Part shown: piece after piece, positions 1 through 64,000 of the stretch
Layout of the letters: every line of letters starts with the position of its first letter
Numbering within the stretch: the first letter of the stretch is position 1
Assembly: GCF_001949145.1 (NCBI RefSeq)
Contig: NW_019091361.1
Coordinates: 3,373,854 to 3,437,853 of the forward strand
DNA from: Acanthaster planci
Taxonomy: Eukaryota
Direction: 5' to 3'
Length of the DNA stretch: 64,000 nucleotides
The notes under the pieces: model-generated
Databases searched by the model: none
The model's input: the letters and a program-made list of their open reading frames with translations, nothing else
What the model was told of the DNA's origin: nothing
Translations under genes and position numbers: made by a program

Positions 1-2686
1 CAAACAACAATCACGTTTCATTCAAAGTGGTTGCGTTTAGTAACCCTCTTGAGGCTGCACACATGCATGACACATTTCTGGTAGCAGGTGATACAAGTAA
101 ATATATCTTTTCACACACAAAAAATTATCACCTCTTCTGGCAAATGTCAAATGCATGTACACGTGACTTGTCCACCATCCTCCTGTCAATTGCGGTCAAA
201 TCACATTGATGAAAACAAACAGAGGAAGTAATTATATCACCCTCAGTGATTTAAAAACAGGCTGGGCCTGAACATGAAAAAATGTATTCAATTTTTAATC
301 TTGTAACGTTACGCACATTCATTTATTTGAATGAAGAAAAATAATATTGACTGTCAGTGACAGCAAAAAGAAACCAGGATACAAATCATTCTCAAAATCA
401 GGGCCAAATTGAATTTATGTGTCACAATTTCGAATACACATTTTTCAAACTTCTCCGGGAAAACACACATTTTTGTACACATGCACTTTTCTACACATAT
501 CAGTGAGTTAAATCAATGCAGCAACTAACAGTGTAACTTATTTTCAGTCTTCTATTGGGCCTTACATTATTTTGGAGACATATTTTACTCCAGGCTGCTT
601 TCTCTTTTTATTTATTTTTTTTGTTCCTTCATTCTTGCATGGTAAGATTCGCTTTACAGAACTTTGATCTAGAAGAAGCTTTCTTCATACGTTAGCACAT
701 TAATTTGTTCATACATAATCAAAATGTTAGAAATTGTTAGAATATGCTCCAACTAGCCCCAATTAAAATTTTCCAACTAACCCAAGTGGCCCATGTGTCA
801 TTTGTAAACTTACGGTACAAAATAGGAACTATCATAACACATCTGTAACCTTATGCGGTAGCTCAGCACTACAGTCTAAAACACCCAGTACATGTATAGG
901 TGGGTAACAAGTCACTTTTACGAACATCAATCAGGCATACATTTTTGAATGCAGATGAAATATCATTAATGGATACTTGGACTTCTTCCCAAGTCAAATG
1001 TTCACTTGCTTTGGATAGTAAACTTAAAGTTTCTTCTTTGATAAAAAAAAATGTGTAAGTAAAAATGCTCGAAAAAAATACAGGGTGGGGGGGGAATGCA
1101 CACTGACTAATATGCATGGTAAGCTTTTAACAGCAGCAAGACTATGAATCAGACGAGCTACTGCAAATGCCATTCAAATCGAATATCTGGACAGTATCTT
1201 CATGCATGTATGTCCACATCATCTGCGAGCATCATCGTATGGTCACTGCAAGATTGCAGACCTATTTGTCCCATAATTTGACAAATATGTCAGCAGGTTA
1301 AGCATATAACTCTTACAACTAAATTTAGCAATGTTTGGCATTACAAATCTTGTTATTGTATCTTCCAGTCTGATGACATTCAGCTGTTCTCAGATGTGTA
1401 TTGTCTTCATGAAGTTTATCCTATCTACATGTATCAGTACCAATGTTCAAATGAGCAATTCACATTTTTTTATATTTTTCAATCTGCTGGTACATGTCTC
1501 GTAACACGAGAGTCCAATTTATGAAACACTATTAAAAGTAAGTCCAAATCTTCTACCAATTTCAAATAAAGTCACCCTTTGTTTTGACTAGAGTTAAGCA
1601 AGAGTGACGTGCTTTTGTACACAAAAAAATTGAAGATAACTAAATTCAATAAATTGCCCCAAAAAGCTGCATCATTTTTAAAACAGGCCAAGAGAATTAT
1701 TTCTGAAAAAAAGAAAAGAGGAAGTTGGACTGGTACAATTTCAAATACTTGATTGGCTCAAGCTCACCCAACAAAAATCAAGGTGCTAACTCCGACATGG
1801 CTAATTATGTTGCAGGATTTGGGACCTTGGGGTTAATGAACATCTGTCAAGTTCTCAGGTTTGTTGGTTTTCTTTCTCTAATTTGAATATCTTTGCGAAT
1901 CCTTGTCCAGGAAAAATGTCATCAGGAAGTTTCAATTTACATGCTATAGATCTACATTCAAACATTTTTTGGACAAAATGTGAAAAAGTTGTAACTCACC
2001 TATACCAACACTTGCATACATGTACCTTAACGATGTGTCCTCTGCATGGAAAGTGCCGAACCAGCAGGGTGAAAGTTTTGGTCTGCATTGATGTGCTACT
2101 CAAGATAAGCAATGACTGCAGGTTTTCCATCAAAGTTTTTGAATTTCTGGCATCTGGCAAAATTTGTTGAAGGGAAACTCTAGAAAGCTCCACACTTTAG
2201 CCTGATCAGTGCAACAACATTAACTTAAACTTGTTTCAAATCTGATCAGACTGAGACTTATTAAGGGCACCTTACAAGTAACTTAATCACATTTTGCATA
2301 ATGATCATCTGAAAAGATTCCAACTTAGGGACATGCTTGTTGGGCAAAATCTGGCTAACCAGGCTGAGTGTAAAAATGGCAAGAATTGGCTTCACAGGGC
2401 AACAGATATTTTGGGCTCAAAGGCAAAAGTGGAAACTGCTCTTCGTAGAAGGATGCCCAATGCTGGGTCACTTATTTTAAGGAAATAAAAGTACAGACCC
2501 ACATAGCTTCTTGTTTATAGAGTAACGAAGTGAAAATAATTCATGCGCATAATTGTGTGTGTAAAAGGCATTAGTGTGAGAGCAAACATTTGAACCAAAA
2601 CGTGCATATTCCATGCACAACAATTCCTGGTTCAAAATGTTGTCACTTCGGTACTCAATTGTGTCACCCATTCGAGTAGGACCCTG

Positions 2687-4799
2687 TATCTACCACAAGC
2701 TCCATGTTTATTCAGACTGATGCCAAGGTCCCTGTTCGTCTCCAAAAGCATAGGCCCACTACATTCACAGGTGATCTACCAAGTTCAGTCTTGGGATCTT
2801 GCATGCCCAGGATGTTGCAGAACTTGTCGGTGTGGAACACTGCCACCCAGGATGCACTGGAAATGACAAGAGCTCCCTGTGAAGGGAAATGTAGTAGACA
2901 AGGACAACCTGATGGGTAGACCTTGAGTGTACGAGACTCTTCAGCTGATGAAAGAGTCAGGATCTGTGTCTCAACTTGATGTGCCGTGAATCAGTTGTGC
3001 TGGAATGTTGCCCTGCCACAAAGAAGTTGCTACCAGAGAAAACCTTAGTCAATGATGCAGGCCCACGGAACACGGGTACCAATGACAGGTAAGTTGATCC
3101 CAAGGAACAGGATAGACTGGTCGTGGAGATGCCCACCTATGTATGTGGATCTCTGGCAAACAGAGAGACTGAGGGTGCCGCCAGACCATGTAAGGACCTT
3201 GACGTCTGGGAAGAAGATTCAACAATTCTGAAACTGATCCAAGGTGAGCCAGTTGCTGCTATGTTCCCAGCTAAAGTATCTTGGGAATTGCTGCAAATCT
3301 TGTGCCGTGTGATGAAGCAATGAAAATGTCATCCTTGTACCGAAAACAATCTGTTGCTCTCAAATCCACAACAGCAGTGATGACAAAAACACTACATGAT
3401 GATATCTGCTGGAACCGGGAGGGTGGTAACCCCGAGGAAAATCTAGACGTCGCCCAAAGAACTGGTTTGTCCATTAGATGAGGGACAGTAGGATTGGGGT
3501 TGGGTGGGAGGATCCAGTTCAGAGGGAAGGCTTCACATTCACAGAGAAAGTTGCCATCAAGTCTTCATCCCTTGGCGATGAAACAGGCCCCTCCTGTGAG
3601 GATATCGGTGAATACCGAGACTGCATTGAAATTGCTCCTGTTACTGTTGCGATACCGTGCCATGTTATTAATGCGAATGATGTCAGTAATGAGTGATGTC
3701 AGTGATGTGAATGATATGTTAGGGAGGAAAGGGATCCCATATTACTGTGTTAGTTTAGGAGGATGATGTTAGGATGATAATGTTAGACTATGATGGCACT
3801 CAAGCCCAATGAACCTCATCATCACACAATATCCCAACGGCACCACAACCAACTTCAATACAGTCTACAGGCTTATAAACAGCTGGTATTCACCGTCATC
3901 CCCATGAGCGAAGTCTGCCCCATATCCAAGGAAGATTACTAGACGACAACTCCCTTCATGAACATAGAACCTACCCTCGGGACTGGATTTACACATTAAC
4001 TCCTACCCACACCTGCCTCCTACTGTCCCCCTTCCAGTGGACAGATCGATTAATTGGGCGGCCTCTGGAATTTCTGCGGTTTTAGCGAACATCATCATGC
4101 AGGAGATCACTGCCTTTGTAGATCTGTGACCAAGAGGCTGTCTTCGGTAAAAGGATTCATTGCTTCATCACACAGCACAGAATCTCCAGTAGCTCCCAGG
4201 AGATTTCAACCAGGTCCAAAGCAGCATCTGATGCACCAAGGGTCAGGAACAGACCGTGAATCTTGTCCCCAGATGTCAAGGTCGCCCAACAGTGTAACGA
4301 TATCCTCAACCCCACTAAGTTTACCAAAGATTACCAACACACACAAATGGGTATCTCAACAACTCAATCCTTCCTGCACCCCAAGATCGCGTCACCTGCC
4401 ATCAGTAACCGAGTCCAGAAAGCCTGCATCAGGAAAGGTCTTCGCCAGTAACAAACTTCAATATGCCAAGACAGCATTACAGCACAAACAGATTCAGGAC
4501 ACATCAAGTCAAGACACAAGATCCATCGTCTTTCATCAACCAAAGGGCCCCTTACACCCAAGGTCGAACCCACCAGGCTCACCTCACCCACTACACGCCC
4601 CAACACAGGGTAGCTCTCATCATTTCCAGCACTTCCTGAATGGCAGCAGTCCACACCGACAGATCTACAACAGCCTAGGGCAATTCAGACCCCAAAACCT
4701 CGCCCAGTAGACCTCCCATAAATGCAACATGACCTACACTAAGGAGACAAACAGAAACTTCAACATCAGACCAATCAAACACAGAGTCCATGGCAGATA
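2687..4799 (-). ncRNA. Putative long hairpin RNA: ~980-nt imperfect inverted-repeat arms (2687-3664 / 3820-4799) with ~155-nt loop
   Basis: Reverse complement of the right arm aligns collinearly with the left arm along its length (2825-2874 vs 4612-4661, 40/50 identical; 3053-3112 vs 4372-4431, 40/60 identical). Transitions are mostly those giving G:U pairs on the minus strand (20 vs 1 in these two blocks). Transcription itself is inferred. Confidence 0.7.
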
Positions 4800-5246
4800 G
4801 AATGGGCCACCTAATAAAAACAAGCATCAAATAGTGTCCGTGTCCCTCCCTCATTCTACCAAGACCCAGGTAGGCCTACAAATTAACTTCAATCTTGATC
4901 GTCTTGACGTGAGTTCCCAACAATTTGCCTGTGAATGCTATTAGGCCTATGGCATTAATTACAGTCAGGCTTATAAATTATATAGGCGCCTAGCCAAACC
5001 TTCCATTTATTACCTTCACGATCATGTGTCTGTTGACATTCACTCAGCCCTGTCAGCCAGACGCACCTTTGTTCGCATTTTTCGACGTTAAAAAGATAAC
5101 ACTGTCCGCATTAAAAATAAATAAAAACGGATAAAAATGATCACACAACAAGAGCGCCGGCGCTGTCTCAAAAAATGCGTGTAAAATGATCGGTTCAAAA
5201 TTCCTGCGCGGTCACATGATTCAGACCGGCGGTTGTGCCCATCACT

Positions 5247-5604
5247 GGTGTGGCGGTCTCAACTGTCTCCCGGTCTCAGCGGTCCCCCTTACCAAATATG
5301 GTAAAAATACGTCATCCATCTCTGCTCACAACAACGGGAAAGTCGTCCGTTTAATTGGCATGCTGAGCAGTATGCTTCACGCTCTACGCGGGTTATATAC
5401 GCAACGTGGTACTGTACATCGCTGGGCCTACACCAAAGATAATAGCACGGGTTTGTAGCTCTATGATAGTACTGTGCGAGTTAGTCATGCAGACATCTCA
5501 GCACAGAAGACCAACGAGACCGTGCTTGTGTCGTGCTGAAATGTCCGGCTACGTCCGGGGGGGGGGGACCGCTGCGACCGGGGGACAGCTGAGACTGCCA
5601 CACC
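5247..5604. repeat. GC-rich 42-bp inverted repeat pair (MITE-like)
   Basis: 5247-5288 ggtgtggcggtctcaactgtctcccggtctcagcggtccccc is the reverse complement of 5563-5604 with 4 mismatches. Confidence 0.7.
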
Positions 5605-5824
5605 GCCGGGTAAGTGCCGCTCCGAAAGACGCAATTCGCCCTCCTATACAGAGCACGGCCCGTTGGCCCAGTATTGGGAACGAGCAAATACAATTGAAAG
5701 GGTTTTTTTACTTGTCCCCAGGACATAGATGTCCGTAACAAAAGTTGTTCTGAGTTTGACGTGAGACTGTCTATGAATAGGCCTACGGAGGGATAGGTGG
5801 TGTTCCGTCCTCCATGCTCTAGGG

Positions 5825-6022
5825 CAGTGGCGTAGCTAGGATTTTACTGGGGGGGGGGGCACAAAGGGACACCAGCATCTTAAGGAGGGGCCGCAGCTTT
5901 CAGTGGTGTGGTTTTTAGGCCAGTTTTGGTTAGCCTTGTTCAATATCCATTCATCCGTTTTGGGTTTTTTTCGGGGGGGGGGCACGTACCCCAGAGCCCC
6001 CCGGGCCCCCGGCTCCTCCACT
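5825..6022. mobile_element. Degenerate non-autonomous DNA-transposon (MITE-like) remnant
   Basis: Starts cagtggcgtagct and ends with an imperfect inverted copy (ggctcctccact), with internal G-runs; resembles common invertebrate MITE ends. Confidence 0.4.
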
Positions 6023-6718
6023 CCTCACTCCAAAGTTTGGCCCTGCATTCGCTCGCTGGTTAAAATGGTGTAATTAAATGGTGTGATTTTGACCTGTGAC
6101 TGCATTTTCCCTCTTAATTTGATTTGAAACAATCATAACGACAAACTACGAAAATTCTGCCAAGAGTAGAAAATTTTGTTTACCGATGTCAAAAAAGACT
6201 TTGAACTGATTTTTTTCTCTTAATGCGTTTTCGTAACAAAGGCCGAATGGTTGGCTCTGATCAACAACGCGCACCCATGGATGTTCACAATTAATGAGGC
6301 CCCTGCAACTCGATTTGTCGCCACCACATTTAATGGGGGGGGGGCAAAGATCCGAATTAAATTAATGTGGGTGGGACCATGGAGAGATAAAACATGGTGG
6401 GACACAGTTCTTGAGCAAAAGATTTGAGTGCATCTGTTGTGAATATAAAAGAGCTGAATCCCCTAGAAAAATCCCCGTGAAAACCAAAAAACATCAGACA
6501 GAAATATAGCCCTTTTGACTGGAAATTCACTGGAAAACTACTAGGGCAATTTTACGTTCAATATCCAAATGTTTCCCGATTGTTATTATTTTTTGTATCC
6601 TTCCCAAAAATTCCACATCACACATTGCTCGTTCCTTACGGCATTTACCCTGCCACTATTTTGAAAAGCGCCCCCTTTACGCCAAACATATTTGAGGGCG
6701 CCCTTGCGATGTTGTTTT

Positions 6719-6738
6719 GTTGCTAGGTACGACGTCAT
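6719..6738 (+). promoter_or_regulatory. Candidate RFX X-box plus CRE-like site, CFAP53 promoter
   Basis: GTTGCTAGGTAC followed by GACGTCA, ~460 bp upstream of the CFAP53 ATG. X-boxes are typical of ciliary gene promoters; the match is imperfect. Confidence 0.45.
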
Positions 6739-7188
6739 ATCAACTTGTGATCAGTGGTAAAGTTACCGGGTGTGCACGTACAGCGCAAGCAAAAGAGCAG
6801 TAGGCCTACATGTGAATCGTGCACCTTTGCCTGAAACCTTAGCTTCGATTGGCACAGTTCTTATACTAGATTTGTAGAATCTGCATTTTAAACAAATTCC
6901 ATGGATTTCAATGCAGAATGAGAAGTCTTTACAATTTGTCCATTTTTGTGTTTGCAAGGTAGCTAAGCTTGTTGCAGTAGGCTTAATTTGTTGAAGTTAA
7001 ATTTCCACTCTTCAGCGAGCGGTGACCGGTGATTTTGTTCTGCATATTCGAGCCCCGTCACGGTTTGGAAAATTCAGGGCTGGCGACGAATCGCCTAAAC
7101 TTTACAACTTCAACGAAGTTTCTGAAGGGTACGAATTCAGTGTCGACGAGTTATCCACTGGAATCAACTGTCAACTCAAGGAGCCATC

Positions 7189-7257
7189 ATGTTGGCAACA
7201 CAGAAACCCCGCAGAACGAGAGAGTACACTGGCCCAACTCCACACTCTGTGGCAATT
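7189..7257 (+). CDS. CFAP53: CFAP53 coding exon 1 (MLATQKPRRTREYTGPTPHSVAI)
   Basis: ATG at 7189; GTGAGT donor at 7258; phase 0; GPTP motif. Confidence 0.85.
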
Positions 7258-10200
7258 GTGAGTTTGTTTCATTATTACTAAATTAGGCTCAGCCCAAGGC
7301 CTATTTCCTCGATGGGAAACTTTGAGATGCTTGATCATGTTGATGGCGGCAAACATACATGTACCGGTCCTTTGTAGCAGTTCTGAGAATGTGCACATTT
7401 TTTGAGCGTGCATGGATAGGCCTAGTTCTGGGCACGCGTAATACTATGAAAATGGACAGGTAGGCCTTGGCCTATGTCTGCTGCCACCAGCCTCAAAAAC
7501 ATTGTGTTGGTGCAGCCTAACTAGATTTCCAACACATTCGACACCGGTGTTACCATAATTATTAGATAAATATAATGTAAAGGCTCCTGATAGGTAGGCC
7601 CTATCTTTTGCATACATGTAGCTCTTGTCACAAAAATAAAGAGAAAAACAGAATAAACCAATTAGGCCCTACTGTATAATGTCTTGTTTTATTTGTTGGT
7701 GTTTTTATTGTTCAGCTGTGGTAACCAACTCCATTCTGTAAACTCTCACATTTCAGAGAGCCAAGATGCCCAGCAAACTACCCCCAGACCATCTGATCTT
7801 GGAGAGAAGGCGCCATGACGACGCCCGAGAGGAGGCTGAGGCAGTGACAAAGTACAATGCCCTTTTCGACCTCAAGAATGACTGGGAGCGCATCACTGAC
7901 CGGCGGATCCAGTTGAACACAGTTCAGAGGAAGGTGCGAGGTCTGATGCTGGAGCAAGAATTCACTCTGGAAGACCGTAGAGAAAGGTAGGCAGATCTAG
8001 CCCATCGAAATGATTTTATCTTTACATCACTCAGATTGGAAAAGAAATTGGAGGAGGGAAGGGCCTTGAACATAGTTTATAAGAATTTGTCTTTGTTTAC
8101 ACTTTAAAATACATGGACAACTGTTTGTTACTGTTGGTATGGAGTTGACTGCTCTGGATCTTGAAACAGGTTTTTAAAATTTTTTTTTCGATTTAGTACG
8201 TAGGCCTACAGGACTCTTGTTCTGTGTTGAATTTAAAATAATTGCTCTGGTTTTATGCCGTCATACATACTCCTAGCATAACTGTACAGGTCATCTAAAG
8301 ATAATGAATGACCCACAGGGTGTATGAGGATGCCCAGGAACCCCTTTGGCAAAATCCTTGAAGTCTTGATAGATTGAACTGAATCCTTTCACAGTTTTGT
8401 TGGCCAGTGCAGCTCTGTATCAAAAAGACTCCTGAGAACGGTCTCCTGAAAATGTAGATTTTGTACCATTCACTGGTTTAATTCCTCCAAAAATTGTTTA
8501 AAGTACTTTTAAAAGATACGTTTATAGTCCTGTGGCCTCTGACCTTTCTGTTACCTGTTGCGGCTGCCAAATATCCCCTCCTCCCATTTCCAGACAAGCT
8601 CAGGTCTTGTAGTTAACTTGCCAGCATCGAATCGTTTCAGGCTGAGGCAGTTGCTGGCCGCAGAGGATGCCATGTACCTGGAGGAGATGGAGGCCAGCCA
8701 GGAGACCATGCTGGAGAGGCAGGCCAAGATGCGGGAGCGGGCCAAGTACCTGAAGGAGAAACGCGAGCAGGAGCGGCTGCAGATTGTCGCCGAGAAGCTG
8801 GACCAGAGATGGAGGTGAGGCTAGGTCCTTTTTCCTCAATGCATTTCTATAATGTGCACTGTCAGTGCCCCAGATACCAATTTATTTTTGCCAGTCCTGA
8901 AAACGACCTCTGGGAACAGCAACAATGAAAAGAGGCGAGGCTGATGTTTGAATGCTTGGGTGTGTCGAGCATGGCACGCATACAACACTCACCCCATGGG
9001 TGTATGGCTTGTGCACTCTCACACAACAGTGGAGGACCTGTTAGAGGTCAAACTGTGCTCAAAATCAATCTTTTCCACCTTCACTTGGCTAGTGTACCCG
9101 CCATGCCTGGTCAGTATCTGTTTTGACTCATAGGAAAATGTGAAGTTGCATATAAGAATTTGACACACGAGTGCAAGACAGACGCTGCTGTTTCAAATAC
9201 CAGTGTGTTTTTGATATATTGTTTTTGATATATAAATGATATTTTGGAGATTTATATTGTGTATTAATGTTTGAACTGAGACTGTTGAAATATCAAAAAT
9301 TAAAATTCCTTTAAAGTTAGAGTTTGGCAAAAGTATGTTTATTAATGAAATTTAAATTAATCTGTAATACATGTACATTTCAAACTGTACTGTCAGTTCT
9401 ATTCCTAACTTTCCAGAATCTCAAAATTGATGTAAATCACCCTGTGTCAGTTTTTCTCCATCGATAGGTGAAGAAATGTTGCCAGGCTGTGACATAACAC
9501 CACCACAAAATAATCACTCATCTTGATTTGTTTTCCAGGGAGGAATGCGAGGAGCTGCGGTCCACCATGACCCGCCGCCACATGGACGAAGTCTGCCTGG
9601 AACGGGGGGAGCAGCTGCGCATCAAGGCGGACATGGCCGAACAGAGCCGGACCGAGGAGGCCCTGTACGCCGACCTATGGCGGCAGGACATGCTGGCCAA
9701 GGCCGCCCGGGAGGAGCGGGAGGCCCAGGAGCGGCATGCCCGCAACCGAGAGACTCTGGAGACCCTGCAGAAGCAAAAGGCGGCCCTAGAAGCCAAGAAG
9801 CAGGACGCCAAGCGGCTCAAGGAGGAGGAAGGAAGACTTCTGGTAGGTTTCCTACCAACGCACCAAGAGAGTGCCAACCTCAAATACCTGAGAACAGAGG
9901 AGGTCCCTATAACGCGGGTTGTGCAACCTGTGTGGACTAAAGACCGGTCCACACAAGCATACTGATAAGAATATAATATAAAATCAGTGCTCTGCAATAT
10001 GTGATTGCCGAGCTTTCGGTAACTTGAGTACCTTCTTCAGGGCAAGCAGATTCAGTTCATTGACAAGAATATAATATAAAATCAGTGCACCGAATCCGCT
10101 TTACCGGAAAAATGGCTGCCATGCAGAACCTCCACTGATTGTGCTCTAACATTTGTTGACCCTTGTGCAGTGATGATGTCAGTGGGAATAGTTAACAAAT

Positions 10201-13027
10201 TTCGCCCCCCATGTTGGAAAAAATGGGCTTTCACAAGAACAGTGGCTCCAATTTTATAAAGTTGGTGTCAGACTGACCTTAGGATATGTACGTAGGAAAC
10301 TCTTGAAGGCCTGGCATGATAGGAGTATGTTTCCACAGTATCAGAAGAAATGCATCAGCTCAGTGAGGGTTAGGTAAAACATATGATGCAAGATATGGGG
10401 CGGAGAGAACCCCCCCCCACCTTTGTGTTGGTCATTGTTTGATCGGAATCTCAGGAATTCTTTACTGACTTCTGGGGGGGATGTGTTAGGTAACAATAGT
10501 CTAGAGTGTGTATAGGGATTGGACATGGGGATGGGTACCTATCGGCCCCATATCGTCCACGGTGTCAGGTAAAATACCACTTGGTGTTCTGCATTCAGTT
10601 TCCCCAGCGGCAGTGAAAAATGAACACACGAGGGAGAATCCAAAGACTATAAATTCGAATAAGTCAGGATTTTCTTTCAAAGTTGTCCCCAAAGATATCA
10701 CAACTTGATTGGCCTTGTTATTTGCTTTCAAATGAGGTATTTCATAATTATTTGGCAGGTGTTTTTGTGAGTTAATATTGCCTTCTTACTTGTTCCTCCT
10801 TAGGTAATGTATCCTCTTCTCTCGCTAAAATCCCTTAAATTAACGGCCATTCTTTTTCAAATTTGATGTTTTTGACGCTCGAAAAATCTGTTGGTCTAAC
10901 AGAGTTTTCCCCTCACCTTGACCTGATCTCTCCGCTCGTCACAGGCAGAGGAGCGGGAACTGCGCAAGATGGAGGAGCAGCGGGCCCAGCAGGAGAAACT
11001 GGCAAAGCAGCAGCAGGCCCGGGAGGACATCGCCACCAACATCCGGCTCAAGACCAGGCGCCACGCCAAAGAGATGCAGGAGGAACTGGCCCTGGACATG
11101 AACATCCTGGAGAAGCTGCTGAGCGACTCACGCAACGAGGCCATGGAGATTGCCCAGAGGAAGGTAAGGCCAAACTTAAGGTATTACTGCTGATTATTAT
11201 TATTGTTATGATTAGTATGTAATTTTTTTAGTAATGAAACCAAAGATTCCTGGCAAGCATCCTGGGCACTGTAACTTGAAGAAGCCTGAGGAAACCTGTT
11301 GAGAGGAGACAGTGAGGAGCAGTTACAGTTTTAGAGGCGGGAGGAAAGCCTCAGAAGAATGTTTCATGTGAAATCCACAGAATCAGGTGGGGACTAAAAA
11401 CCCAATCCACATGTAGACCAAGCTGGAAAATGAACCCAGGCTTTTGAGGTGAATAGCAAGGAAAGAACCACGCTACCAACCCAACCGTCCCATAACAATG
11501 AAGCATCAATGACGTGCACATCATTTGGCAATATTTGTCATTCAAAGGCACTGATTTAATATTGTTAGCCCTGCTTATCTCTGCAGCTCACAGCATCTGA
11601 ACATTCCTGAAATGATTGCAGCCCCCTCAGGAGTATGGTCAATGCTGCCAATTAAGCATCACGGCCCACACGAATACCTGTATATGTGATGCATTAATTG
11701 CAGGCCAGCTGTGCAGGAACTGCTCACCAGACAGGGTAATCATTGAAGAGGCAGTATAGATAAGGGGAAATGTTATCTTGTGTTATTGTAGAAAGAGCTT
11801 CGCGAAGAAGACCAGCGTTACCGCGCCTACCTCAAGCAGTCTGCTCTGGATGAGCAGGAGCGAGACCGCGAGATCGACAGGCTGGTGGACGCTGAGGTGC
11901 AGCGGCAGTGGCAGAAGAGGCTGGACGACTGGGCCAAGCAGCGGGAGGCTAGGAAACGGCTCATGGACAACGTGCTGGCCGTGCGCCGCCAACAGGTGGA
12001 GGAAAAATGTAAGACCCTCATTTGTGTAGTTGGTAAATTTCATCAGTGTCCATCCTGTGTAAGTGTGCAGTGGACGACGGAAAGGCTGGGCTGACTGCCT
12101 GGTTTTTGCCTTACATTAGGAATGTAGTGATGAAGATTTAAAACAGTTTTTTTTCTTGCCTTGGTGTACATATATTTATTAAATTTTGAACTGCTAATTT
12201 CAAGTCAAGCCAAGTCAGTTCACAAAGGATCTACAAGAGAGGATCGAAGGGAATTTTCCCTTGTCTTAATTAAATTTAAGTTGCTTGTGGCTTGGCTTGA
12301 TATTGGATGTGGTATCAACGTGATAACAACTCAAGCAACCAGTGCCCAATATCATGGCCCTGGTGGCAGTGATGTAGTCGAGACCTTAACCCTAACACTC
12401 TTCAGTCCTCCAACAGGTGAAGGATTGAGGAGTGTCAGGGTTAAAGCTTGAGACAGAGACCTGAGGACTGAGCCCGAGACCTCTGGGTCCAAAGTTGAGA
12501 CTGAGACCTTAGCTAGACGACGTAGAATAGATACTAATGAAAATATACATTTATTCCTCCCAAAACCTGGTGTGAACAGCTCAGTGAATTTGGCCCTTGG
12601 AGGTCTCTGAATCATACCTTACAGTAACTTATTAGCATAAATATGTATATTTTTAAAAAAACTTCCAGTGGCAGAAAATGCCAAGGCCCAGATCGAGCTC
12701 CAGAAAGAGCGGGAGTTGATGCAGGTGGCCATGGCTGAGCACCAGCGGCTGGAGGAGGAGAAGCTGGCCGCCATCCGGCGTGACAACCTGGCCTACCAGG
12801 ACCACCTCCTGGGCCAGATGGATTTCACCCGCCGCCAGCACGAGGCCGAGAAGGACGAGGAGCACCTGGAGTACCTCCGGGGGCTGGAAGCCGAGGCCGA
12901 GTACCAGGCCAAGCTCAAGGAGGCCCTGGCCCGCCCTGTCATTGACAAGATGCACCCCATGAGGCGGGCCTATATGGCTCAGAAGTCGGCTGGCGGGAGG
13001 TCACAGGAAGACGAGCTTCCAATGTGA
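7189..13027 (+). CDS. CFAP53: Cilia- and flagella-associated protein 53 (CCDC11), 7 coding exons: 7189-7257, 7757-7986, 8641-8814, 9539-9842, 10945-11163, 11792-12008, 12669-13027; 523 aa
   Basis: All introns GT-AG with consistent phases; total 1572 nt. E/R/K/Q-rich coiled coil with CFAP53-like motifs: REYTGPTP, LRQLLAAE, VAEKLDQRWREECEELR, C-terminal HPMRR. Confidence 0.9.
7757..7986 (+). CDS. CFAP53: CFAP53 coding exon 2
   Basis: tttcag acceptor; RAKMPSKLPPDH...EDRRE; GTAGGC donor. Confidence 0.9.
8641..8814 (+). CDS. CFAP53: CFAP53 coding exon 3
   Basis: tttcag acceptor; LRQLLAAE...EKLDQRW; GTGAGG donor. Confidence 0.9.
9539..9842 (+). CDS. CFAP53: CFAP53 coding exon 4
   Basis: ttccag acceptor; EECEELR...EEEGRLL; GTAGGT donor. 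Confidence 0.9.
10005..10045 (-). ncRNA. Minimal type-I hammerhead ribozyme-like motif (Penelope-like-element type) between 24-bp direct repeats
   Basis: Minus strand UUGCC-CUGAAGA-A-GGUA(CUCAAGU)UACC-GAAA-GCUC-GGCAA: stem I, core, stem II, GAAA, palindromic AGCU stem III, CUC triplet. Confidence 0.55.
10945..11163 (+). CDS. CFAP53: CFAP53 coding exon 5
   Basis: tcacag acceptor; AEERELRKM...IAQRK; GTAAGG donor. Confidence 0.9.
11792..12008 (+). CDS. CFAP53: CFAP53 coding exon 6
   Basis: ttgtag acceptor; KELREEDQRYRAYLK...QVEEK; GTAAGA donor. Confidence 0.9.
12386..12444. mobile_element. 59-bp palindromic TTAA-CCCT...AGGG-TTAA mini-element (piggyBac-like MITE)
   Basis: Self-complementary with TTAA ends; a second 59-bp copy in opposite orientation at 26849-26907. 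Confidence 0.55.
12669..13027 (+). CDS. CFAP53: CFAP53 last coding exon
   Basis: ttccag acceptor; AENAKAQ...HPMRRAY...ELPM, TGA stop. Confidence 0.9.
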
Positions 13028-19166: not shown

Positions 19167-19200
19167 AACACTTTACAAAGGCTGCCACTGCCTCCCTACA

Positions 19201-19442
19201 AATTTAGGGGTCCATTTTCTTTCATGTCCCTGTCACATCTGACGCATGATTTTGTAAGTTCAGAACACATTTTTTTACATGTAATTTCCAAGAGTGATAA
19301 ATTTATGCAAATTACTTGCCAAACAAATAGTAATAGTTTGAAATCAATTCCGGTGATATTTCCATGTAAAATAATAAAGGTCAGATGTAACAGGGACACC
19401 AAAATGTCACACTTTTGGACCCCTAATTTCTGGAATTACCCA
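19201..19442. mobile_element. MITE family A, copy 1 (one end truncated)
   Basis: Reverse-complement homologue of 40456-40692; ends ...ggacccctaatttctggaattaccca. Confidence 0.65.
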
Positions 19443-20269
19443 CATGTACTGTATATGTACATGTACATCAACCGACAATGCACATTATGTGCATATATGT
19501 ATTTGCAAGATGTATGAATGCACTGAATCAATTATTCAGTTGGCAAAGAGATAATCATCACATTACTGTCATAGTCACAGTCAGTCACCAGCAGCATCTT
19601 CAAAGACCTATGGCCTGAGGCTTTAACCCAAGTACATAATTTGAGGAAGGACACAGAAGGAGTTACAACTCTGGTAAGTCAAAGTGCTCAATGATCATCG
19701 CCGCCCGGTCAGACGAACACTAGTAAATATTCCCCAAATGCCTGATTACTGCCTGCGGCTTAGCCGGACAAGTGGGGCCAGTAATACCTAGCAATAGTTG
19801 TGGTGTTTTCTTTGCAATTACATGTAACTACAACTTGTCGCAGTGTCCAGGAAATAGAAAGAAAAAATATCTAACATTAGATTTACTTTTGCTGTTGTGA
19901 ATATTTTTTTAAGAGTTTGATTGATTCCATTTCTTCACCCAGGGTATGCCCAAACAGTTTACAAACTGGTTTCCATTGAGGCCCTGCGATCATTACAAAT
20001 GAATAAAATTGTTAGAAACTCACGACGAAAAGTAAAATTGACAAATATGGCAAACATTAATATTTACAAATACAGACCACTAAAGTATCATACACATGTG
20101 AACATTTAAATAAGGCATTCATTGAATACTGATCACAGGATGGGCAAAAACCCTGCAAAAAAAAAATGGGAAAAAAGAACACAGGGAAATTCCTGATCCG
20201 GCTCCAATGAACATTGACAACCAAGTTAACAACTCCATAGATCAGCGTTTGGGACTACACGACACTGGT

Positions 20270-38300: not shown

Positions 38301-41300
38301 AATCCTAGTAAATAATAGAAACACTGGAGATTGAAGCAATAAATGATACAGTTCCTTATGAACAACCCCTTTTGATGAATGGAATAGGCTCACAGGCCGT
38401 TTTATGCACATCATGTGCAGACCCCTTCCGTCCCCCCCTGAATTGCGTATTTTTCAGCTCCTTATTTACGTTTCCGTGGTATGATGTTTTGATAAATATG
38501 GCCCATGTGGCTCGAGAATTTTGTTTTCAAGAATTTAAAAAGTCAGCTTGGAGAGCATGCAGAGAAGAGTTGCTCTTAATCAGTTATGTACTGTTACTGA
38601 TGGGCATTAAACACTTGGGGTCAGATATGTTTTTGTCTGAAGTGAAGGAACAGTTCCAGTTGGCTAGAGTTAACAATGTCAAGTTGTATCCATGGTGTCA
38701 AAAATACACCTTACAGGTAACATATTGCTTTTACTATGTGTATCTATCTAGGGAGACAAATCTCAAGGTGCGCCAAGCGTTGCCTGAGACAGCCTTGTTG
38801 GGTGAAGATCTAGACAGATTCAAAAATTTCAAAGGTAAGCAGAAACCAAGTAACAAAAGAAATAATCCACATTCTTGCAAGATTTATTCTAGTGACCAGT
38901 AATACTTCTGGATAGAGCCTGAAATGATACGGAAAATGAGCAAAAGAAGTAAATACAAAAATGAGTTCTCCTGTCCCATCATAAACTTTTAATAATTTCA
39001 CTAACAGAACCATACTTGCATACAGGTAAAGATCTTAATTTGAAGAACTTTTAAAAGCTGTTTTCAACCAGAAGCATCTCGATTTGACAGAACATACATC
39101 ATGCTTACATTTTGTCTACAGCGGAAGTGAAATGCGAACCGCCCAACAACAAGCTGGATCGCTTTGAGGGGACGCTGACATGGGAAGGCGACAGCTTCCC
39201 GCTGTCTAACGACCAGATCCTGCTGCGAGGCTGCCGACTGCGCAACACAAAGTGGTGCTACGGCATCGTCATCTTCGCCGGCCGCGACACCAAACTGATG
39301 CAGAACAGTGGCAAGTCTAAGTTCAAGAGGACCAGCATCGACCGCATGGTCAACAAGCTGGTGCTGGTGGTGAGTAGAGCAGCTGACAAGACCAGTGACA
39401 AGACCATACCAGTCCTTGTATAGGTCCCGTCACAAGACCAGTAACAAGACCATAAAAGTCCTCTTATGAGTCCAGTCACAAGACCAGTCACAGGTCCCCA
39501 CACAAGTCCTTTCACTCACCGAGTTACAGTTAGTTGTCAAGATAAACAGTGACGAAGGAATATTTTGCCACAGTTCATTTCAACAGCTTTTGAGTTGACT
39601 TGAAACTTGATATGAGTGTACAACAGTGAAATGTTGCAGAAGTGATGGCTTTTTCTTCCAGTTAAACAGTTTGGTCCTCGCCGGCCTTGGCCGTCTTTCT
39701 TGGTAGTTTTCTTTTCAAGACAAATTGCTGTTGTCAAATGGGGTTTTTAACCTGTCCAAATCTCTGAGTCCTGACCCTTGGGTGGAGTTTGGAGTGGAGT
39801 TCTTGACACAGGATTCTTATTCTTGCACTCGAATGGTGGGAACACGACCCAAGAACACTGTTCTCGGAACACAATCACACACCACCTCCTCGTGGGGGTT
39901 GCACAGGAATGTGCGGAAAAACTAGTGAGATTTGATTTTTGAACAGCCGCAAAAACTGGCGAGATGGCTTACAAAGCCAGAGACAATGGAAAGTTTTGCC
40001 AAATTAACATTGATAATTTTCCATAACACAGAAATGAATATTTCTTTTTAAATGGAAAAGAGTTTATCCCAGTTATCCAAACATTATCTCTAGAAGAATG
40101 TACATGGTCTCCGCCGTTGCATGTTGCTTGCCACTGACTCTGATCGATGACCGGTTGTACGTTCCTGGCAATCGAGCAGCCGACCCTTGCACAACAAATC
40201 GAATCTGTTGATGAACGACGAGAACAAGCCGCCCGAACTCAGCCTTGGTTTCTTGGGCTTTATTTTGTTTGACAGATTTTCTTGATTCTGTTTGTGTTGT
40301 GTCTCATCTGTTCCATCGCTTGCTCTGTCTGGGAAGCCAACTATGGCGATGTATTTCAGGTATGTTTTATAAATGTCGCACCCTGCAAGTATTTTTTAAC
40401 ATCTCAGTTGAATTAAATTCCATCCCATGAAAATCTGGAATATCGCAGCATACGTATGGGTAATTCTAGAAATTAGAGGTCCAAAAGTGTGACATTTTTG
40501 TGTCCCTGTTACATCTGCCCTTTGTTTTTTGACATGGAAATATCACCGGAATTGATTTAAACTATAACAATTTGTTTGGCTAGCAATTTGCATTAATTCA
40601 TCTCTCTTGGAAATTAGAAAATGTTCTGAACTTACAAAATCACATGTCAGACACAAAAAAAACATGGACCCCTAATTTCTGGAATTACCCATATTGCTTG
40701 TTGTGAGACAGTGTGTTTGTGACATGGAAATTCAGTAATGAGGCTTTGGGTTCAACTTGCAGATTTTGCCAGAGCGTGAGATGAGCCCAACAAATTCAGT
40801 AATGAGGCTTTGGGTTCAACTTGCAGATTTTGCCAGAGCCTGAGATGAGCCTGTGACTTCTGGATTATCAGTTGCTATTTAATGAGCCAGGGTTTCCCCC
40901 GGGGGTGGGGGGGAGAGTGAGCATTAGGTGGTGAAAACAAATTATGATACAATCAAAGTACCTGCATCGATGGCACTTATTGCTGACCATGGTAGCAGGC
41001 CTTCTCATAGTACACAGTACATTGTACATTTACAAATGTACTCTTAATCTGCTCCATCTTAGATAAACTACTCTTGCATTCCGTATCCTTCTTTGCCAGT
41101 GAGAACAATCTGAAACAGGAATAATTTTGCCCAAAGTTTTTGGATTTTATTTTTTGAAGGTTTTTTTGCTTTTCCACATTTTTTTTAGTGTGAGGTGGCA
41201 ATATTGGACCCAAAAAAGCTGAAGTGGTCACTACAATGAGTGGGGTGGGCCACCTTATGTTTGGAAGGGCAGGGGAACCTAGCAAAGAGCCATGTAGCTC

Positions 41301-50300: not shown

Positions 50301-53300
50301 CAGCGAATTATCCTGTCTTAACTCTTTTCTCTCCATCTTTAAAAAAGAAGTTAGGATTATCCAAATTGTTTTTAGATCTAGTGTTAAGATTTGAAGGTTT
50401 TCATGGTGAAAGAACTACATGAGTAAAACGATTGCAGTTACGCCATGGATCAACCATGGTTAACCACACATACTCAAGAAAGAGACTGGTCCATGGTGTA
50501 ACCGCAATCGTTTTACTCAGATAGATCTAGTGTGGTGCTTTGGAACCCTACAAAGAAAACAATTGCAGTGATCTTTAGGAACCTTTGAGTTTCGTGTTGG
50601 GCCTGTTCTTCAGCATCTTTCGCTTTAGAGGCAATCTGCAGTCCATATTTTTCTACTCCCCTCTAAGGCATTTGCGCTGGGCAGCAAAGATATTGAACAG
50701 GTATTCCTTGAGGCTGCCTGCTACTGCAAGACGGTCATCTGCTGCCGCGTCACTCCGTTGCAGAAGGCCCAGGTGGTTGACTTGGTCAAGCGGTACAAGA
50801 AGGCAGTCACACTGGCCATTGGAGATGGAGCCAATGACGTCAGTATGATCAAAAGTAAGCCCCACAGCGTCTCTGTATTTGTGTTGGAAACCTTGCCGAA
50901 TGTTGTTTGAAAAAAAAAAAAAGAAATCTGTCGTTGGAAACCAATGTCATATTCTGCAAACCTCACTCCCTCAAGATATAAATACCATCAAGACAACAAT
51001 TTAAAAATTAGAAAAAAAAATTGTGGACCTGACCTTTCGTAGTCCATCAGAATTATCCCAAACCACCAAGTTGTTTTTTCTCTCAGGTTTTGGGAGTATA
51101 GAGTACCAAAGTGAATACGTCATGGGCAAAATTAGTGGGTAAAAGGCATAAGCGCGAGAACTAGCGTGTGAACCAACATGCGCACGTACTCCATTCGTTT
51201 GCACTGCACTTTCTGGTTCACAGCGACGTCACACTCCGGTACTCCATAGGGGTAATTAATTTTTGTGGAATCGGATGTGCAGCCTTTGATAGGTATTTCT
51301 TGTAGCGGGAAGTAGATTTTATGCATGCTGTGGTGGACAGGCAGCTGTGTGCCATTTCCAGTTGAAATGAATCAGGAAACAGTTACTTGATGTGGGATCA
51401 GGTTTTGAAATCAAGTTTGAAGTTTGAATGTCTGTTGAATTCAATGTCTTTTAATGATTGTTGTATTCTTATCTTTGACATGCCCTTCTGTTATTTATTT
51501 TGATTTTGTTTTATATGTATATCTGTTTTCCTTCCAGCTGCACACATCGGAGTTGGCATCAGCGGCCAGGAAGGGATGCAAGCTGTGCTTTCCAGTGACT
51601 TCAGCTTTGCTCAGTTCAGATATCCATTTTCTCATGAATTCTTATGAGCTGTTTGCTTGTCTGTGCATGTATGTGTTGGTCTTTTGCTACGAGACATTTG
51701 CCTAATAACCCTGGTGTCTGATACACTGTGGTTTACTTTGGGGGATGAAACTTTAATTCTTTTTCAAGTGCCATGGCACTGTACCCTTTGTAGCCTGAAG
51801 AAGCCAAGATGGAAAATGCAAACAAGAAATTTTCAGTTTTAGAAGTGGAAGAAAAACTTAAGAACGATTTCCAGGGAAAGAAAAAAACGTAAAGCCAAGC
51901 GGCAACTGGAAACCTAGTCCACAGGTTGGCCTGTGCAAATATGCTTTGCTTGGGCATTTGCCCAAGGGATTTGTTTTTCAAGCGCTGGGCTTCTTGAAAG
52001 GCATTACTTTGAAATCAGCGATGAAGTATTGGGATGAGTAAGTTTTCTCTTGATATGAAGATTGACTCCTTAACGACCACGCACGTACCTGGAGCGGCTG
52101 CTTTTGGTACATGGCCGCTGGTCCTACTACCGAATGAGCAAGTTCCTCTCCTACTTCTTCTACAAGAACTTTGCCCAGACGGTGGGCCACTTCTGGTTTG
52201 CCTTCTTCTGCGGGTTTTCTGCCATGGTGAGTCTGCGTCAGATTTCATTGCATGAAACGGGGATCTCCGGGCTTTGAGAGGAGAATCGATCCGTTGGCCT
52301 CTCTTGCTGCATTTTCAGAGTTGATGTCTTCTGACAAATCTGCATCCAAGTGTGCAGATAGAGTTGGAAGGGGCTTTGAGGGGACAACTGTTTGTGGCTG
52401 AGGATTTTTTTAAAGACCTAATATTTCAAAAATTTGGGAATTTTTTTCCTCAATTCCAGAACTGTTTTAATCCTAACCCCCTACCCCGATAGTGTTGCCA
52501 TCCACTGACCCCAATGACCTCCAGCAGCTATAATGTGTGAATCATGCCGAGACCCAGCGTACAAGAGCAAGAGCAGTTGGACCCTTTTGGGTTTGGTGTG
52601 GTTCGGGTCGAAATTGACACAACTTGAAAAAATCCAGTGAAATGTTGTCTCTTTGTTCCGGAGGGCAGTGAGCAGGAACGTGTACGTGAAAGCCACGATC
52701 AAGTGTTTTTTACCCCATGTCTCTTGTTCTTCTTGCAGACTCTATATGATGAATGGTACATCAGTGCGTACAACATCATCTTCACCTCATTGCCTGTGAT
52801 AGCCCTGGGCATATTTGACCAGGTATAGTGCAACCATACTAAACATTTCTCTGACACCGATCCATTACCTCGCCCTCCGCATCCTTTAACTCCAAAGGAA
52901 AATTTGGATAAGTTGAAAGTGTCTTCTTGGCCGATTTGTCTCTCAGGATGTCAGCGACAAGAAGAGCATCGAATACCCGGAGCTGTACAAGCCAGGACAG
53001 AAGAGCCTGTTCTTCAACTACGTGGTCTTCGCCAAGAGTCTGCTGCAGGGCACCGTCACCTCGCTGGTCCTCTTCTTCATCACCTACGGTAATTGAAAGA
53101 ACGCCCCCACGCCCAAGCCGTCAGACCCCCTCTCTCTCTGACTCCACTTTGACGGTATCGTTGGGGATTCAGGTTGTCATTGTGGTTCGTTCCTTGTCTT
53201 TCGTCCTGCAGCTCGGCTTTGAATCTGGTGCAGTCCACGTGAGCGTTGGGTTTCAGCCCCTACCTAATGCTGTGGGTTTTAGCCCGAATATTCTTCAGAG

Positions 53301-60900: not shown

Positions 60901-61560
60901 GGCTAGCATGCAGTGTGTAATCGTAGGATTCAGAATTTATTTCAGGATTTATTTATTCGGTACTTCATCACAAGTAAAACCAGGGATAGCCCATGAAAGT
61001 TTTGCGTACATGTACAATACATGTACATGCACTGTGCACAGGAATGTGTGGTGTATATTGAGGTTCAATTGGTACATAGGAAAAATTGTTAATACTTGCT
61101 GTACAAAGTTTAAAACAAAAAAGAGACAATTACAGGGTGCAGTAGGACCTAGACGAGGGAAATGTCCCACAAAACCAATGATCACTGAAAACTGACAAAA
61201 AGACTTTCAAATCCACCACAGGGAAATCTCAAGTCCATGGACTACAAACCTGCTTGTAACGGGCAGAACTGCATGTACATGTATGTGCATAATTATGACG
61301 AGAGAGTCTGCTCTCTATTGCAGTTCATTTTGAATAGCTAATTGCAACTCTATCAGTCCGGCTGAGTTCTGATTATCTTACAAATGACATTATTACTTGA
61401 TTATGACTTTGACAAAAAAAAAAACATTAAAAAAAATGAGGGAGGCGGAAGGGAAAACCCTATGACAAATTTGCAACAGTTTCAATGAGAACTCACACCC
61501 ATTTAAACAAGATACTTCAAATCGGTAGCAAGAAAACAAATCTGTCTGCCCAAATGATAC

Positions 61561-61814
61561 ATGGGTAGTTCCAGAAATCAGGGGTCCATTTTTTTCCAGG
61601 TCCCTGTTTCATCCGACATGATTTTGTGGTTCAGAACACATTTTAGGATTTCCATGAGTGACGAATCAAAGCAAATTATCTACCGAACAAATAACAATGG
61701 TTTGAAATCAGTTCTGGTTTATATTTCCATGTCAGATAACAAAGGTCAGATGTACATGTAACAAGGATACGAAAATGTCAAACTTTTGGACCCCTTATTT
61801 CTGGAATTACCCAT
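61561..61814. mobile_element. MITE family A, diverged copy 3
   Basis: atgggtagttccagaaatcaggggtcca ... tggaccccttatttctggaattacccat. Confidence 0.65.
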
Positions 61815-61920
61815 ATGACAGTTGCTTCCTGAAATTTGAACTAATCTACCGTACTGACATCTTGTGACAAGTTCAATAACGAGACTACTATTGCAAACAT
61901 TTCAATCACTGCTCTCACTA

Positions 61921-62260
61921 CACTGGTACAGGTGTAACACTGGTACAGGTGAAACACTGGTACAGGTGTAACACTGGTACAGGTGTAACACTGGTGCAGG
62001 TGTAACACTGGTGCAGGTGTAACACTGGTACAGGTGAAACACTGGTACAGGTGTAACACTGGTACAGGTGTAACACTGGTGCAGGTGTAACACTGGTACA
62101 GGTGAAACACTGGTGCAGGTGTAACACTGGTACAGGTGAAACACTGGTGCAGGTGTAACACTGGTACAGGTGAAACACTGGTACAGGTGTAACACTGGTA
62201 CAGGTGAAACACTGGTGCAGGTGTAACACTGGTACAAGTGTAACACTGGTACAGGTGTAA
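61921..62260. repeat. 17-bp minisatellite, 20 copies (CACTGGTRCAGGTGWAA)
   Basis: Directly visible tandem array; explains the three repetitive overlapping ORFs in the track. Confidence 0.95.
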
Positions 62261-64000
62261 CAGTCAGCTATGGTAATAAATATCAGTATATATAATATTT
62301 ACAAAGTACAAAGGCAACAGCTATGTATATGTATATTTGGTTTGATCTTAAGAAAAGTGTTAATTAAGCACTAACAGTTTTGGAAAAAGCCACATAAAGA
62401 CAGGCAAATGTTTAATTTAATAGATGCACTTGTCTAATGCTGAAGCACTGAATGCCATAACTTGTTCAAATCCATGCATTTTTTTACTATCAAAATATAC
62501 CTCTGTGTATAGATCCATGCTTCTACATGTAGCAAACACTGAAGAGAAATCCTCACTGGCATTTTTACAGGCCTGTGCCTATGGTCTCGTAGCAAGAAAC
62601 GTGCAGTGCTGCAGACAAACGTTTGACCGTGCAACGAGACAATCTCTGAGTGACTAAGCTGTGGCTTGAAATTACACATGACTCTATGGGTAAAGGCTGC
62701 AACCACTAGGTAGACTCATGTGCACTTTCAACCTGCAGCCAAGTAATTTGGACACAGCCTTGTTACTCGGCTTCTCCTGGACAGTACACAAGCACCAACG
62801 CAAGCCAGTGGCTACAGCTATTTGTCACAGCCCCGTGTTGTTGCTGTCCACATAGGATGCTGCCTCATGGGCATTCACCTGCTCTGTGAGATGGTATACC
62901 CACGGCGAATTGTCTTGAGAAGAATATGGAACATTCGGAAATGTTCCCTTTGAAAATACCACCTGTCCATATTAGACAGTGCACTTGTCCTACCTGCATA
63001 AACCTACGCACACTGTGAATGGCAGATAGCACACCAGTATCTATACAAAACATTCTGTCTGATCAGCTGCTGATCAGACAGCTGCTGGGCTTGGAAGTAT
63101 GAGTAGATAGCAACACCTCCCCCTAAAAGGAGAAATAAATGAAGACCCACTCTCTGTGATGGTACTGAGTACCAGTAGGTACATGATCATACTCTGGGCA
63201 GATACTAACACTCTGCCAATATGTGCTGTACATGTAGGTACTAAATCATAAGCTGTGAAATACATGTACATGTAATTCTGAGCAATTTATAAACATGATT
63301 ATGTGGAATTTGAGCTGCTGCATACATTAAGCCTGTATTAGCTACTTTTCTCTTTGCAGCTCGTAAAATTTACCTAAAAAACAGTGTAAGACCCAATATA
63401 CTAGTATCTTGATAATGTCTGTCACTGTTTTAAATTTGGTGTAAATGCACCACAAATAAACCATGGCCAGCCTCTTAGTTACACGACGCCACTTTCCAGA
63501 ATGCATCACTTGATCTACTGCTCCATGGATGCAGCCATCTTGGTACAAAGCACTGTGGTAATGCTTTTTAACGGGCGATGGGCGTCCCTTGTGCCCTGCC
63601 ACTAACATACATGTCCCACAATGCTTTCGCGCCAAGCAACATTTGGCAAAGATGGTGATAACTGAAGCAGCAGCTGAACTTTAAACGTCTATTCACAATT
63701 TAAAAAGGTTCAATATGTCTACCTTTCAGGTTGACTTCCAGAAGTCCAAACCTGCTTGGGTCTTTTGTTAATATTACCAGGGCTGAGTTGCAGTCACATC
63801 AATTATAAAACACTTGTTTTAGCATTACCTACAAACTGGGAAACATGCAAATCTTCATTGGAACAATTATTAAGAATGTGTTTGTCCAAAATGGTACATG
63901 TACATGTAGTTCCTCGACAAGCACCATAGCATATTCTAAAATTCCTGAAAAAAAATTACTTTTGCTGATGGTACATGAATAAATTAGGGAATTTCACATG

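Follow-up and report, generated by a model that had tools for sequence, protein, structure and literature searches.

A candidate long hairpin RNA gene on the minus strand of the Acanthaster planci genome, probably selected for base pairing

The window analysed here is a 64,000-nt stretch of DNA from the sea star Acanthaster planci (NCBI RefSeq assembly GCF_001949145.1, contig NW_019091361.1, positions 3,373,854 to 3,437,853 of the forward strand), near the start of which lies a collinear inverted repeat of about 1 kb with arms at 2670–3666 and 3818–4815. The differences between these arms fall predominantly in the direction that leaves G:U pairs in an RNA of the minus strand, and it is considered very likely that the repeat specifies a selected hairpin RNA. 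A preliminary description of the window had proposed such a structured, non-coding, probably minus-strand RNA, and this proposal is supported by the bias over the full arm alignment, by control repeats, by wobbles at CpG sites, by differences between related copies and by coverage in two sequencing runs (X1 and X11, see below).

Arm alignment and predicted fold

Local alignment of the left arm against the reverse complement of the right arm gave 957 columns, of which 672 were identical. Transitions yielding G:U pairs on the minus strand numbered 145, against 37 in the opposite direction (binomial p = 2.6e-16), together with 103 transversions. Both classes of transition contributed, with wobble-type to opposite ratios of 75:18 for A/G and 70:19 for C/T. 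The one-directional bias first noticed in single blocks therefore holds over the whole alignment, and the three block counts were reproduced exactly (40 identities, 8 wobble-type changes, 2 transversions and 0 opposite; 40, 12, 7 and 1; and 8 against 5 in the central block). It peaks in the outer half of the repeat and is absent from the 100-nt bin 3400–3499 (5 against 9). No three-base pattern was seen in the mismatches of the arm alignment.

Both strands of 2650–4830 were folded, and the minimum free energy (MFE) was far lower for the minus strand, as had been anticipated, at −1174.7 kcal/mol against −895.1 for the plus strand. The minus strand formed 822 pairs along the long axis, 147 of them G:U, compared with 685 on the plus strand, and had the lower folding energy in all four quarters. 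The structure is an extended hairpin formed from a long inverted repeat on one strand, as in the fly-type hairpin RNAs (hpRNAs). Its parts are as follows.

3818–4815, minus strand: right arm of the window and predicted 5' arm of the hairpin RNA, from the alignment, the fold, X1 contigs at 87–95% identity and X11 reads; rich in G and U on this strand, its single-base bulges lying mostly in the outer half
3868–3884, minus strand: 17-nt insert (bulge) in the 5' arm, from the alignment and fold
3667–3817, minus strand: loop of about 150 nt, of low complexity and weakly folded, from the alignment and fold; in the X1 copy 90 letters are exchanged for 94
2687–3666, minus strand: left arm of the window and predicted 3' arm of the hairpin RNA, from the alignment, the fold and coverage in runs X1, X2 and X11; a diverged homologue (P0010) matches over about 2676–2860
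2663–2686, minus strand: 13-nt bulge (2674–2686) together with the 3' strand of a marginal basal helix of 11 bp (2663–2673, partner 4800–4810), from the MFE fold and its bulge list

The insert had been described as about 18 nt at ~3867–3884; its presence stands, with size and place corrected as listed. A 12-nt stretch of it (3862–3887) reappears by eye in the same orientation in the putative leader at 4962–4986. The basal helix is absent from a two-piece fold and is hence regarded as marginal. In the outer-half stem (4298–4742), small bulges, mostly of U, number 11 on the 5' arm and 4 on the other, and the periodicity of their spacing was not significant.

Cause of the wobble bias

The preliminary description held that neutral decay of an inverted repeat should not be polarised, which is wrong if mutation is itself strand-biased, and a separate test of strand-biased mutation was therefore needed. 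As a control, eight further pairs of inverted repeats elsewhere in the window together gave 36 wobble-type against 31 opposite transitions (Fisher p = 1e-4 against the hairpin). These include a repeat resembling a miniature inverted-repeat transposable element, present in three copies and both orientations (19200–19460, 40440–40720 and 61540–61830). Within the hairpin, the bias was 53:11 at CpG sites and 92:25 elsewhere. Decay of methylated CpG affects both DNA strands about equally, and decay of both cytosines leaves tandem wobbles on one RNA strand; 21 of these fell on the minus strand and 1 on the plus. G came next after the U of a G:U pair in 53 of 147 cases, compared with 25 of 339 after the C of G:C pairs, so that many of the wobbles appear to be decayed CpGs.

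Minus-strand skew was −0.42 in the loop (C-rich), −0.02 in the downstream flank and 0.16 in the leader (G-skewed); the two genes transcribed within the window show skews of only 0.04–0.07. As the loop and downstream skews are unlike a general strand bias, and given the tandem wobbles at CpG sites, we infer from the sequence that selection to keep a minus-strand RNA paired would explain the bias, with strong local strand-biased mutation as the remaining alternative.

Searches for coding origin, families and targets

A Pfam search of 23 open reading frames (ORFs) returned nothing except a weak CN_hydrolase match (E = 0.16) at 2594–2863, and when all 12 frames of the arms were read through with X, none gave a match. 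A homologue search with 3274–3564 (minus strand) yielded none among 47 candidates. A codon-usage scan found no host-like signal in the arms, the best arm score being 8.0 against 46.6 for an exon of the neighbouring CFAP53-like gene. An Rfam scan to E = 1 gave no match in the arms, no microRNA (miRNA) and no ribozyme, with two chance matches outside the arms, and a scan for the hammerhead core motif detected no self-cleaving ribozyme. Metagenome scans recovered no relatives of the hairpin, and viral contigs shared just a 19-nt motif at three loci, which is at chance level.

One of the 12 arm frames was searched against a library of 1.8 billion entries, with four matches. Three of these (P0008, P0009 and P0011) were rejected as relatives, being low-complexity repeats, which leaves P0010 alone as an arm homologue. 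P0010, an ORF of 89 residues on a 1674-nt ENA contig, aligns with the terminal part of the 3' arm over about 2676–2860 (28 of 44 residues) and is taken, from its sequence, to be an ORF arising by chance in a more diverged copy of the hairpin. It shares two of its forced changes with X1 and, one apparently frame-shifted stretch apart, most of its changes still pair with the other arm in the window.

RNA data and related copies

Of 23 sequencing runs listed for the hairpin, four of unknown kind share 43–53% of its sequence words, corresponding to about 97–98% identity if the whole stretch is assumed to be present, and two probable RNA runs share 8–12%. No run recorded as RNA is among the indexed holders, which counts neither for nor against expression, and none of the 23 is a small-RNA run. 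Four of the 23 (X1, X2, X7 and X11) were compared with positions 1–9000 at 85% identity; X11 is recorded as RNA-seq and X1 is taken to be RNA by guess.

Contigs of X1 cover 2702–4833 at 87–95% identity, with nothing on CFAP53 or on most unique flanks. One of them crosses from the left arm through the loop into the right arm, which makes it unlikely that the arms are two independent transposon insertions, a possibility raised in the preliminary description. In X11, the summed depth was 1.2–3.7 in each of the seven bins of 2701–4800. Coverage of both arms and the loop in X1 and X11 thus comes from related copies and does not point to that of the window in particular. X11, which has the same species label as X2, contains at least two versions of the hairpin, one with the letters of X1, and X1 has two overlapping right-arm contigs. 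With at least three versions in all, a small gene family is likely and is the simplest reading; the versions might instead come from pooling of animals, from species labels applied loosely or from divergent alleles. For comparison, the CFAP53 contig of X2 has 9 differences from the window in 907 letters.

The polarity also appears between copies. Among the 38 arm differences listed for X1, from 173 differing places, 19 swap Watson–Crick and G:U pairs and 3 swap Watson–Crick and A:C (p = 9e-4), a count weakened by the partner base having been assumed unchanged for most of them. A further four make up two compensatory pairs (2760/4726 and 2828/4658), a number that alone is within chance. The remaining 12 are transversions, eight of them at positions paired in X1 yet mismatched in the window and four the reverse. 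The ratio of 19 to 3 suggests that the polarity is still acting in recent divergence.

No back-joint indicating a circular RNA was found among the joints listed (15 of 21), depth being low. Over 1201–2100, X11 shows low depth and X1 a trace, and donor-like sites of the minus strand occur at about 2000–2030; the region may represent downstream exons of the hairpin transcript.

Leader, possible intron and promoter region

Three further features were placed upstream of, or overlapping, the 5' arm.

4816–5090, minus strand: likely 5' leader of the transcript; X1 loose ends behind 4815 and 5057 resemble 4835–4864 and about 5060–5090 (by eye)
4000–5013, minus strand: possible alternative intron removing most of the 5' arm, suggested by an X1 joint 3993–5011 and by donor and acceptor sites
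5000–5800, strand not assigned: CpG-rich stretch and candidate promoter region, including an inverted-repeat element at 5247–5604; 12–14 CpG per 200 nt compared with 2–4 at 4600–4999

The joint from 3993 to 5011 occurs in one X1 contig (depth 6.55), in which the letters between are missing from the record. As a minus-strand intron it would have a good donor at 5013 and an AG at 4001–4000 with a poor, G-rich acceptor. The left arm is deeper than the right in X1 (13–17 against 9–11 per contig). This putative intron (5013–4000) is the sole hint of strand from the RNA data, and the spliced form would retain just the inner ~180 bp of the stem.

A TATA-like sequence at 4984 and an AATAAA at 2712, both on the minus strand, were rejected as signals in use; the X1 contigs extend beyond both and P0010 has no AATAAA. 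The element at 5247–5604 is small, with 42-nt terminal inverted repeats, and many similar reads occur in the runs. At the other end, a dispersed repeat (2516–2659 and 51097–51247, 71% alike) adjoins the base of the hairpin and may be an insertion accounting for the differing flank in X1.

Favoured mechanism and points against it

The reading favoured here, held tentatively and at somewhat short of an even chance, is that the locus is a selected minus-strand long hairpin RNA gene whose transcript is probably diced into silencing RNAs. The repeat would have arisen by an old inverted duplication, after which selection would have tolerated drift from G:C and A:U to G:U and purged mismatches. RNA polymerase II may initiate in the CpG-rich region near 5000–5250, and the resulting minus-strand non-coding transcript is predicted to fold into a hairpin of about 950 bp, probably from several copies per genome. 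The hairpin would then be cut into small RNAs by miRNA-type Drosha and Dicer, and these, loaded on Argonaute, would silence complementary transcripts. A spliced form without most of one arm could turn the duplex off. Given a selected hairpin RNA, small-RNA output is predicted with slightly better than even confidence.

The enzymes of such a pathway have to be considered. According to PMC6085071, the sea star Asterias rubens has one Dicer and one Argonaute, both of the miRNA type, and directs PIWI-interacting RNAs at viral inserts. Dicer-2 and the Argonaute of the small interfering RNA (siRNA) class were not found in deuterostomes according to a survey (10.1101/2023.05.08.538551), which also reports no siRNA signature for a sea cucumber. 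The fly pathway itself is therefore unlikely here, and dicing would require the miRNA enzymes. Mouse oocytes provide a precedent for dicing by those enzymes, as two sources note (10.1101/2023.05.08.538551, PMC8728187).

These gene losses weigh against dicing, and several other observations weigh against the reading as a whole. The longest uninterrupted helix is 23 bp, and neither G:U pairs nor mismatches nor bulges showed a period of 21 or 22 bp. Expression is low and uneven across the runs: X11 holds about 30 reads of 11 million (estimated from depths), X7 has a depth of 0 and X2 contributes a single 331-nt contig with 11 differences. X1, the main source of contigs, is the run whose nature was guessed. 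First mates split evenly over CFAP53, so that the libraries look unstranded and the reads give no strand for the hairpin. No excess of T>C, as expected for A-to-I editing on the minus strand, was found over 1–9000 (X1, 28 against 32 A>G; X11, 29 against 27), which is a weak test without matched DNA. Neither the window nor translated searches of some frames yielded a source gene or a target.

Alternative explanations

An uncut rod is judged unlikely. In this reading the hairpin would be a structured RNA that binds double-stranded RNA (dsRNA)-binding proteins, acting as a scaffold, as a decoy or in tuning the sensing of dsRNA, or whose pairing steers its own splicing. The persistence of full-length contigs in X1, the short helices (23 bp at most, 17 bp if free of G:U) and the reported loss of the fly siRNA machinery in sea stars would all fit. 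The G:U pairs of the MFE structure also recur weakly at 11.0 bp (R = 0.24; shuffle p < 1/3000, scan-corrected 0.01), 11 bp being the pitch of the A-form helix. This signal falls to R = 0.15–0.17 (p = 0.008–0.026) on three alignments and is one of seven features tested, and bulge phasing at 11, 21 or 22 bp was not significant.

It is quite improbable that the hairpin is a mobile element, selfish and non-coding, or an integrated RNA of the viroid-like rod type that uses its fold to be copied. Such an element could account for several versions 3–13% apart with a more distant homologue, for the rod-like fold and for arms to which no origin was traced. Against this, there is one hairpin copy within the 64-kb window, no ribozyme was detected by Rfam or the motif scan, no ORF has a family match, and viral contigs give chance matches. 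The loss of CpG suggests a long stay in methylated DNA. The arms are just 70% identical and strand-biased, where a foldback or other DNA transposon would be expected to have near-perfect terminal repeats, a target-site duplication and many copies.

A giant primary miRNA (pri-miRNA), with a basal duplex as the product and the remainder as an extended paired loop, is very improbable, although it has invertebrate precedents, exceeding 1 kb in some Lepidoptera according to PMC12553114. In its favour, the X1 loose end retains the side of the 11-bp basal helix (10 of 11 letters) while the adjoining bulge is altered, and the two right-arm contigs of X1 share, among the differences listed, nine in 4656–4726 and none in 4727–4815. 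The basal helix is marginal, however, with a 13-nt bulge at the would-be Drosha cut, and the 3' side of the base is altered in P0010. No miRNA was matched in Rfam. The same source also describes deuterostome loops as uniformly short and giant miRNA extensions as differing much between species, whereas here the entire stem is conserved.

A functionless inverted duplication that decayed because mutation favours A>G and C>T on the minus strand, as germline transcription might cause, is given even less weight. It would yield the identical signature and suits the G-skewed leader, and neutrality predicts the lower rate of change at Watson–Crick (8/276) than at G:U pairs (10/67), for which reason this difference was dropped as evidence of selection. 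It would nevertheless require a four- to five-fold bias, CpG included, in a window where the genes are hardly skewed and the control repeats are unbiased, and the loop is skewed the opposite way. The other alternative of the preliminary description, a retro-integrated, ADAR-hyperedited perfect hairpin, would produce both classes (75 and 70) by A>G editing in both arms, but it is largely refuted, since the rarest 5' neighbour at the wobbles is C (0.06) and not G (0.28), the one ADAR disfavours, the U-then-G excess is a CpG-decay pattern, and G:C to G:U swaps between copies (10) exceed A:U to G:U (7).

Comparison with known systems

The hairpin resembles the Drosophila hpRNAs (hp-CG4068, hp-CG18854, Nmy and Tmy) in being a long imperfect inverted repeat within one non-coding transcript, and fly hpRNAs are likewise G:U-rich. 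It is also likely to be spliced, multicopy and tissue-restricted. PMC10317233 and PMC12697358 describe fly hpRNAs as spliced, tissue-restricted and often multicopy inverted-repeat transcripts, the latter adding that they turn over fast, whereas the sea star arms, about 30% diverged, look old. The host here is a deuterostome in which Dicer-2 and an AGO2-type Argonaute are reported missing, and the likeness is one of build, fly hpRNAs being defined by 21–22-nt reads from the arms and by dependence on Dicer-2; given the gene losses reported in Asterias rubens, the hairpin is not classifiable as a fly-type hpRNA.

Giant pri-miRNA hairpins such as lepidopteran mir-12 and Daphnia mir-375 have a kilobase well-paired stem that the miRNA machinery can reach, and PMC12553114 describes them in protostomes; they are not reported in deuterostomes. 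The sea star hairpin differs in its length of about 2.1 kb, its conservation over the entire stem and the lack of any known miRNA. Dicing in the absence of an insect-type Dicer-2 is conceivable here, as it is for mouse oocyte endogenous siRNA loci and for the long inverted repeats of plants (LIRBase; PMC8728187). Unlike those, the present repeat has no pseudogene or gene source that was found, and carries a strong, old wobble bias.

Viroid-like rods (deltaviruses, obelisks and retrozymes) share the unbranched rod and short helices. In contrast to them, the hairpin has no ribozyme or protein, is genomic and CpG-decayed, and has a fold favoured in one polarity.

No description of a comparable echinoderm RNA turned up in the literature searched, subscription papers excepted; the LIRBase main text (PMC8728187) does not mention echinoderms, and mammalian inverted duplicates are treated in PMC5398296. 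Deuterostomes are thought to have lost a dedicated endogenous siRNA pathway, and for most cells long dsRNA of their own making is a burden. If an expressed genomic hairpin of about 950 bp is indeed under selection in a sea star, either long-hairpin RNA interference (RNAi) re-evolved on the miRNA machinery or kilobase RNA rods serve another role. It is possible, though rather doubtful, that sea stars have a family of 2-kb rod RNA genes, long selected for pairing, which would constitute a hairpin silencing system evolved without Dicer-2 or an siRNA-class Argonaute, or else act as uncut rods constrained by helical face; alternative splicing in one arm would then switch the duplex on or off. The hairpin offers a concrete locus for testing long-hairpin RNAi in sea stars, and the wobble-polarity test, chiefly the tandem CpG count, provides a cheap genome-wide screen for such RNAs.

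Neighbouring features

A CFAP53-like gene lies at 6756–13027 on the plus strand. A spliced X2 contig begins at 6756, and the gene would be divergent from the hairpin transcript and about 1.5 kb away. Its last coding exon is 83% identical to Patiria miniata and 79% to Asterias amurensis. Exons of a second plus-strand gene were spotted by eye in ORF translations over about 32950–55142; these we take to belong to a P4-ATPase (ATP8B-like flippase). Towards the end of the window, a tandem array occupies 61920–62262, with 20 copies of a 17-nt unit at 92% matches.

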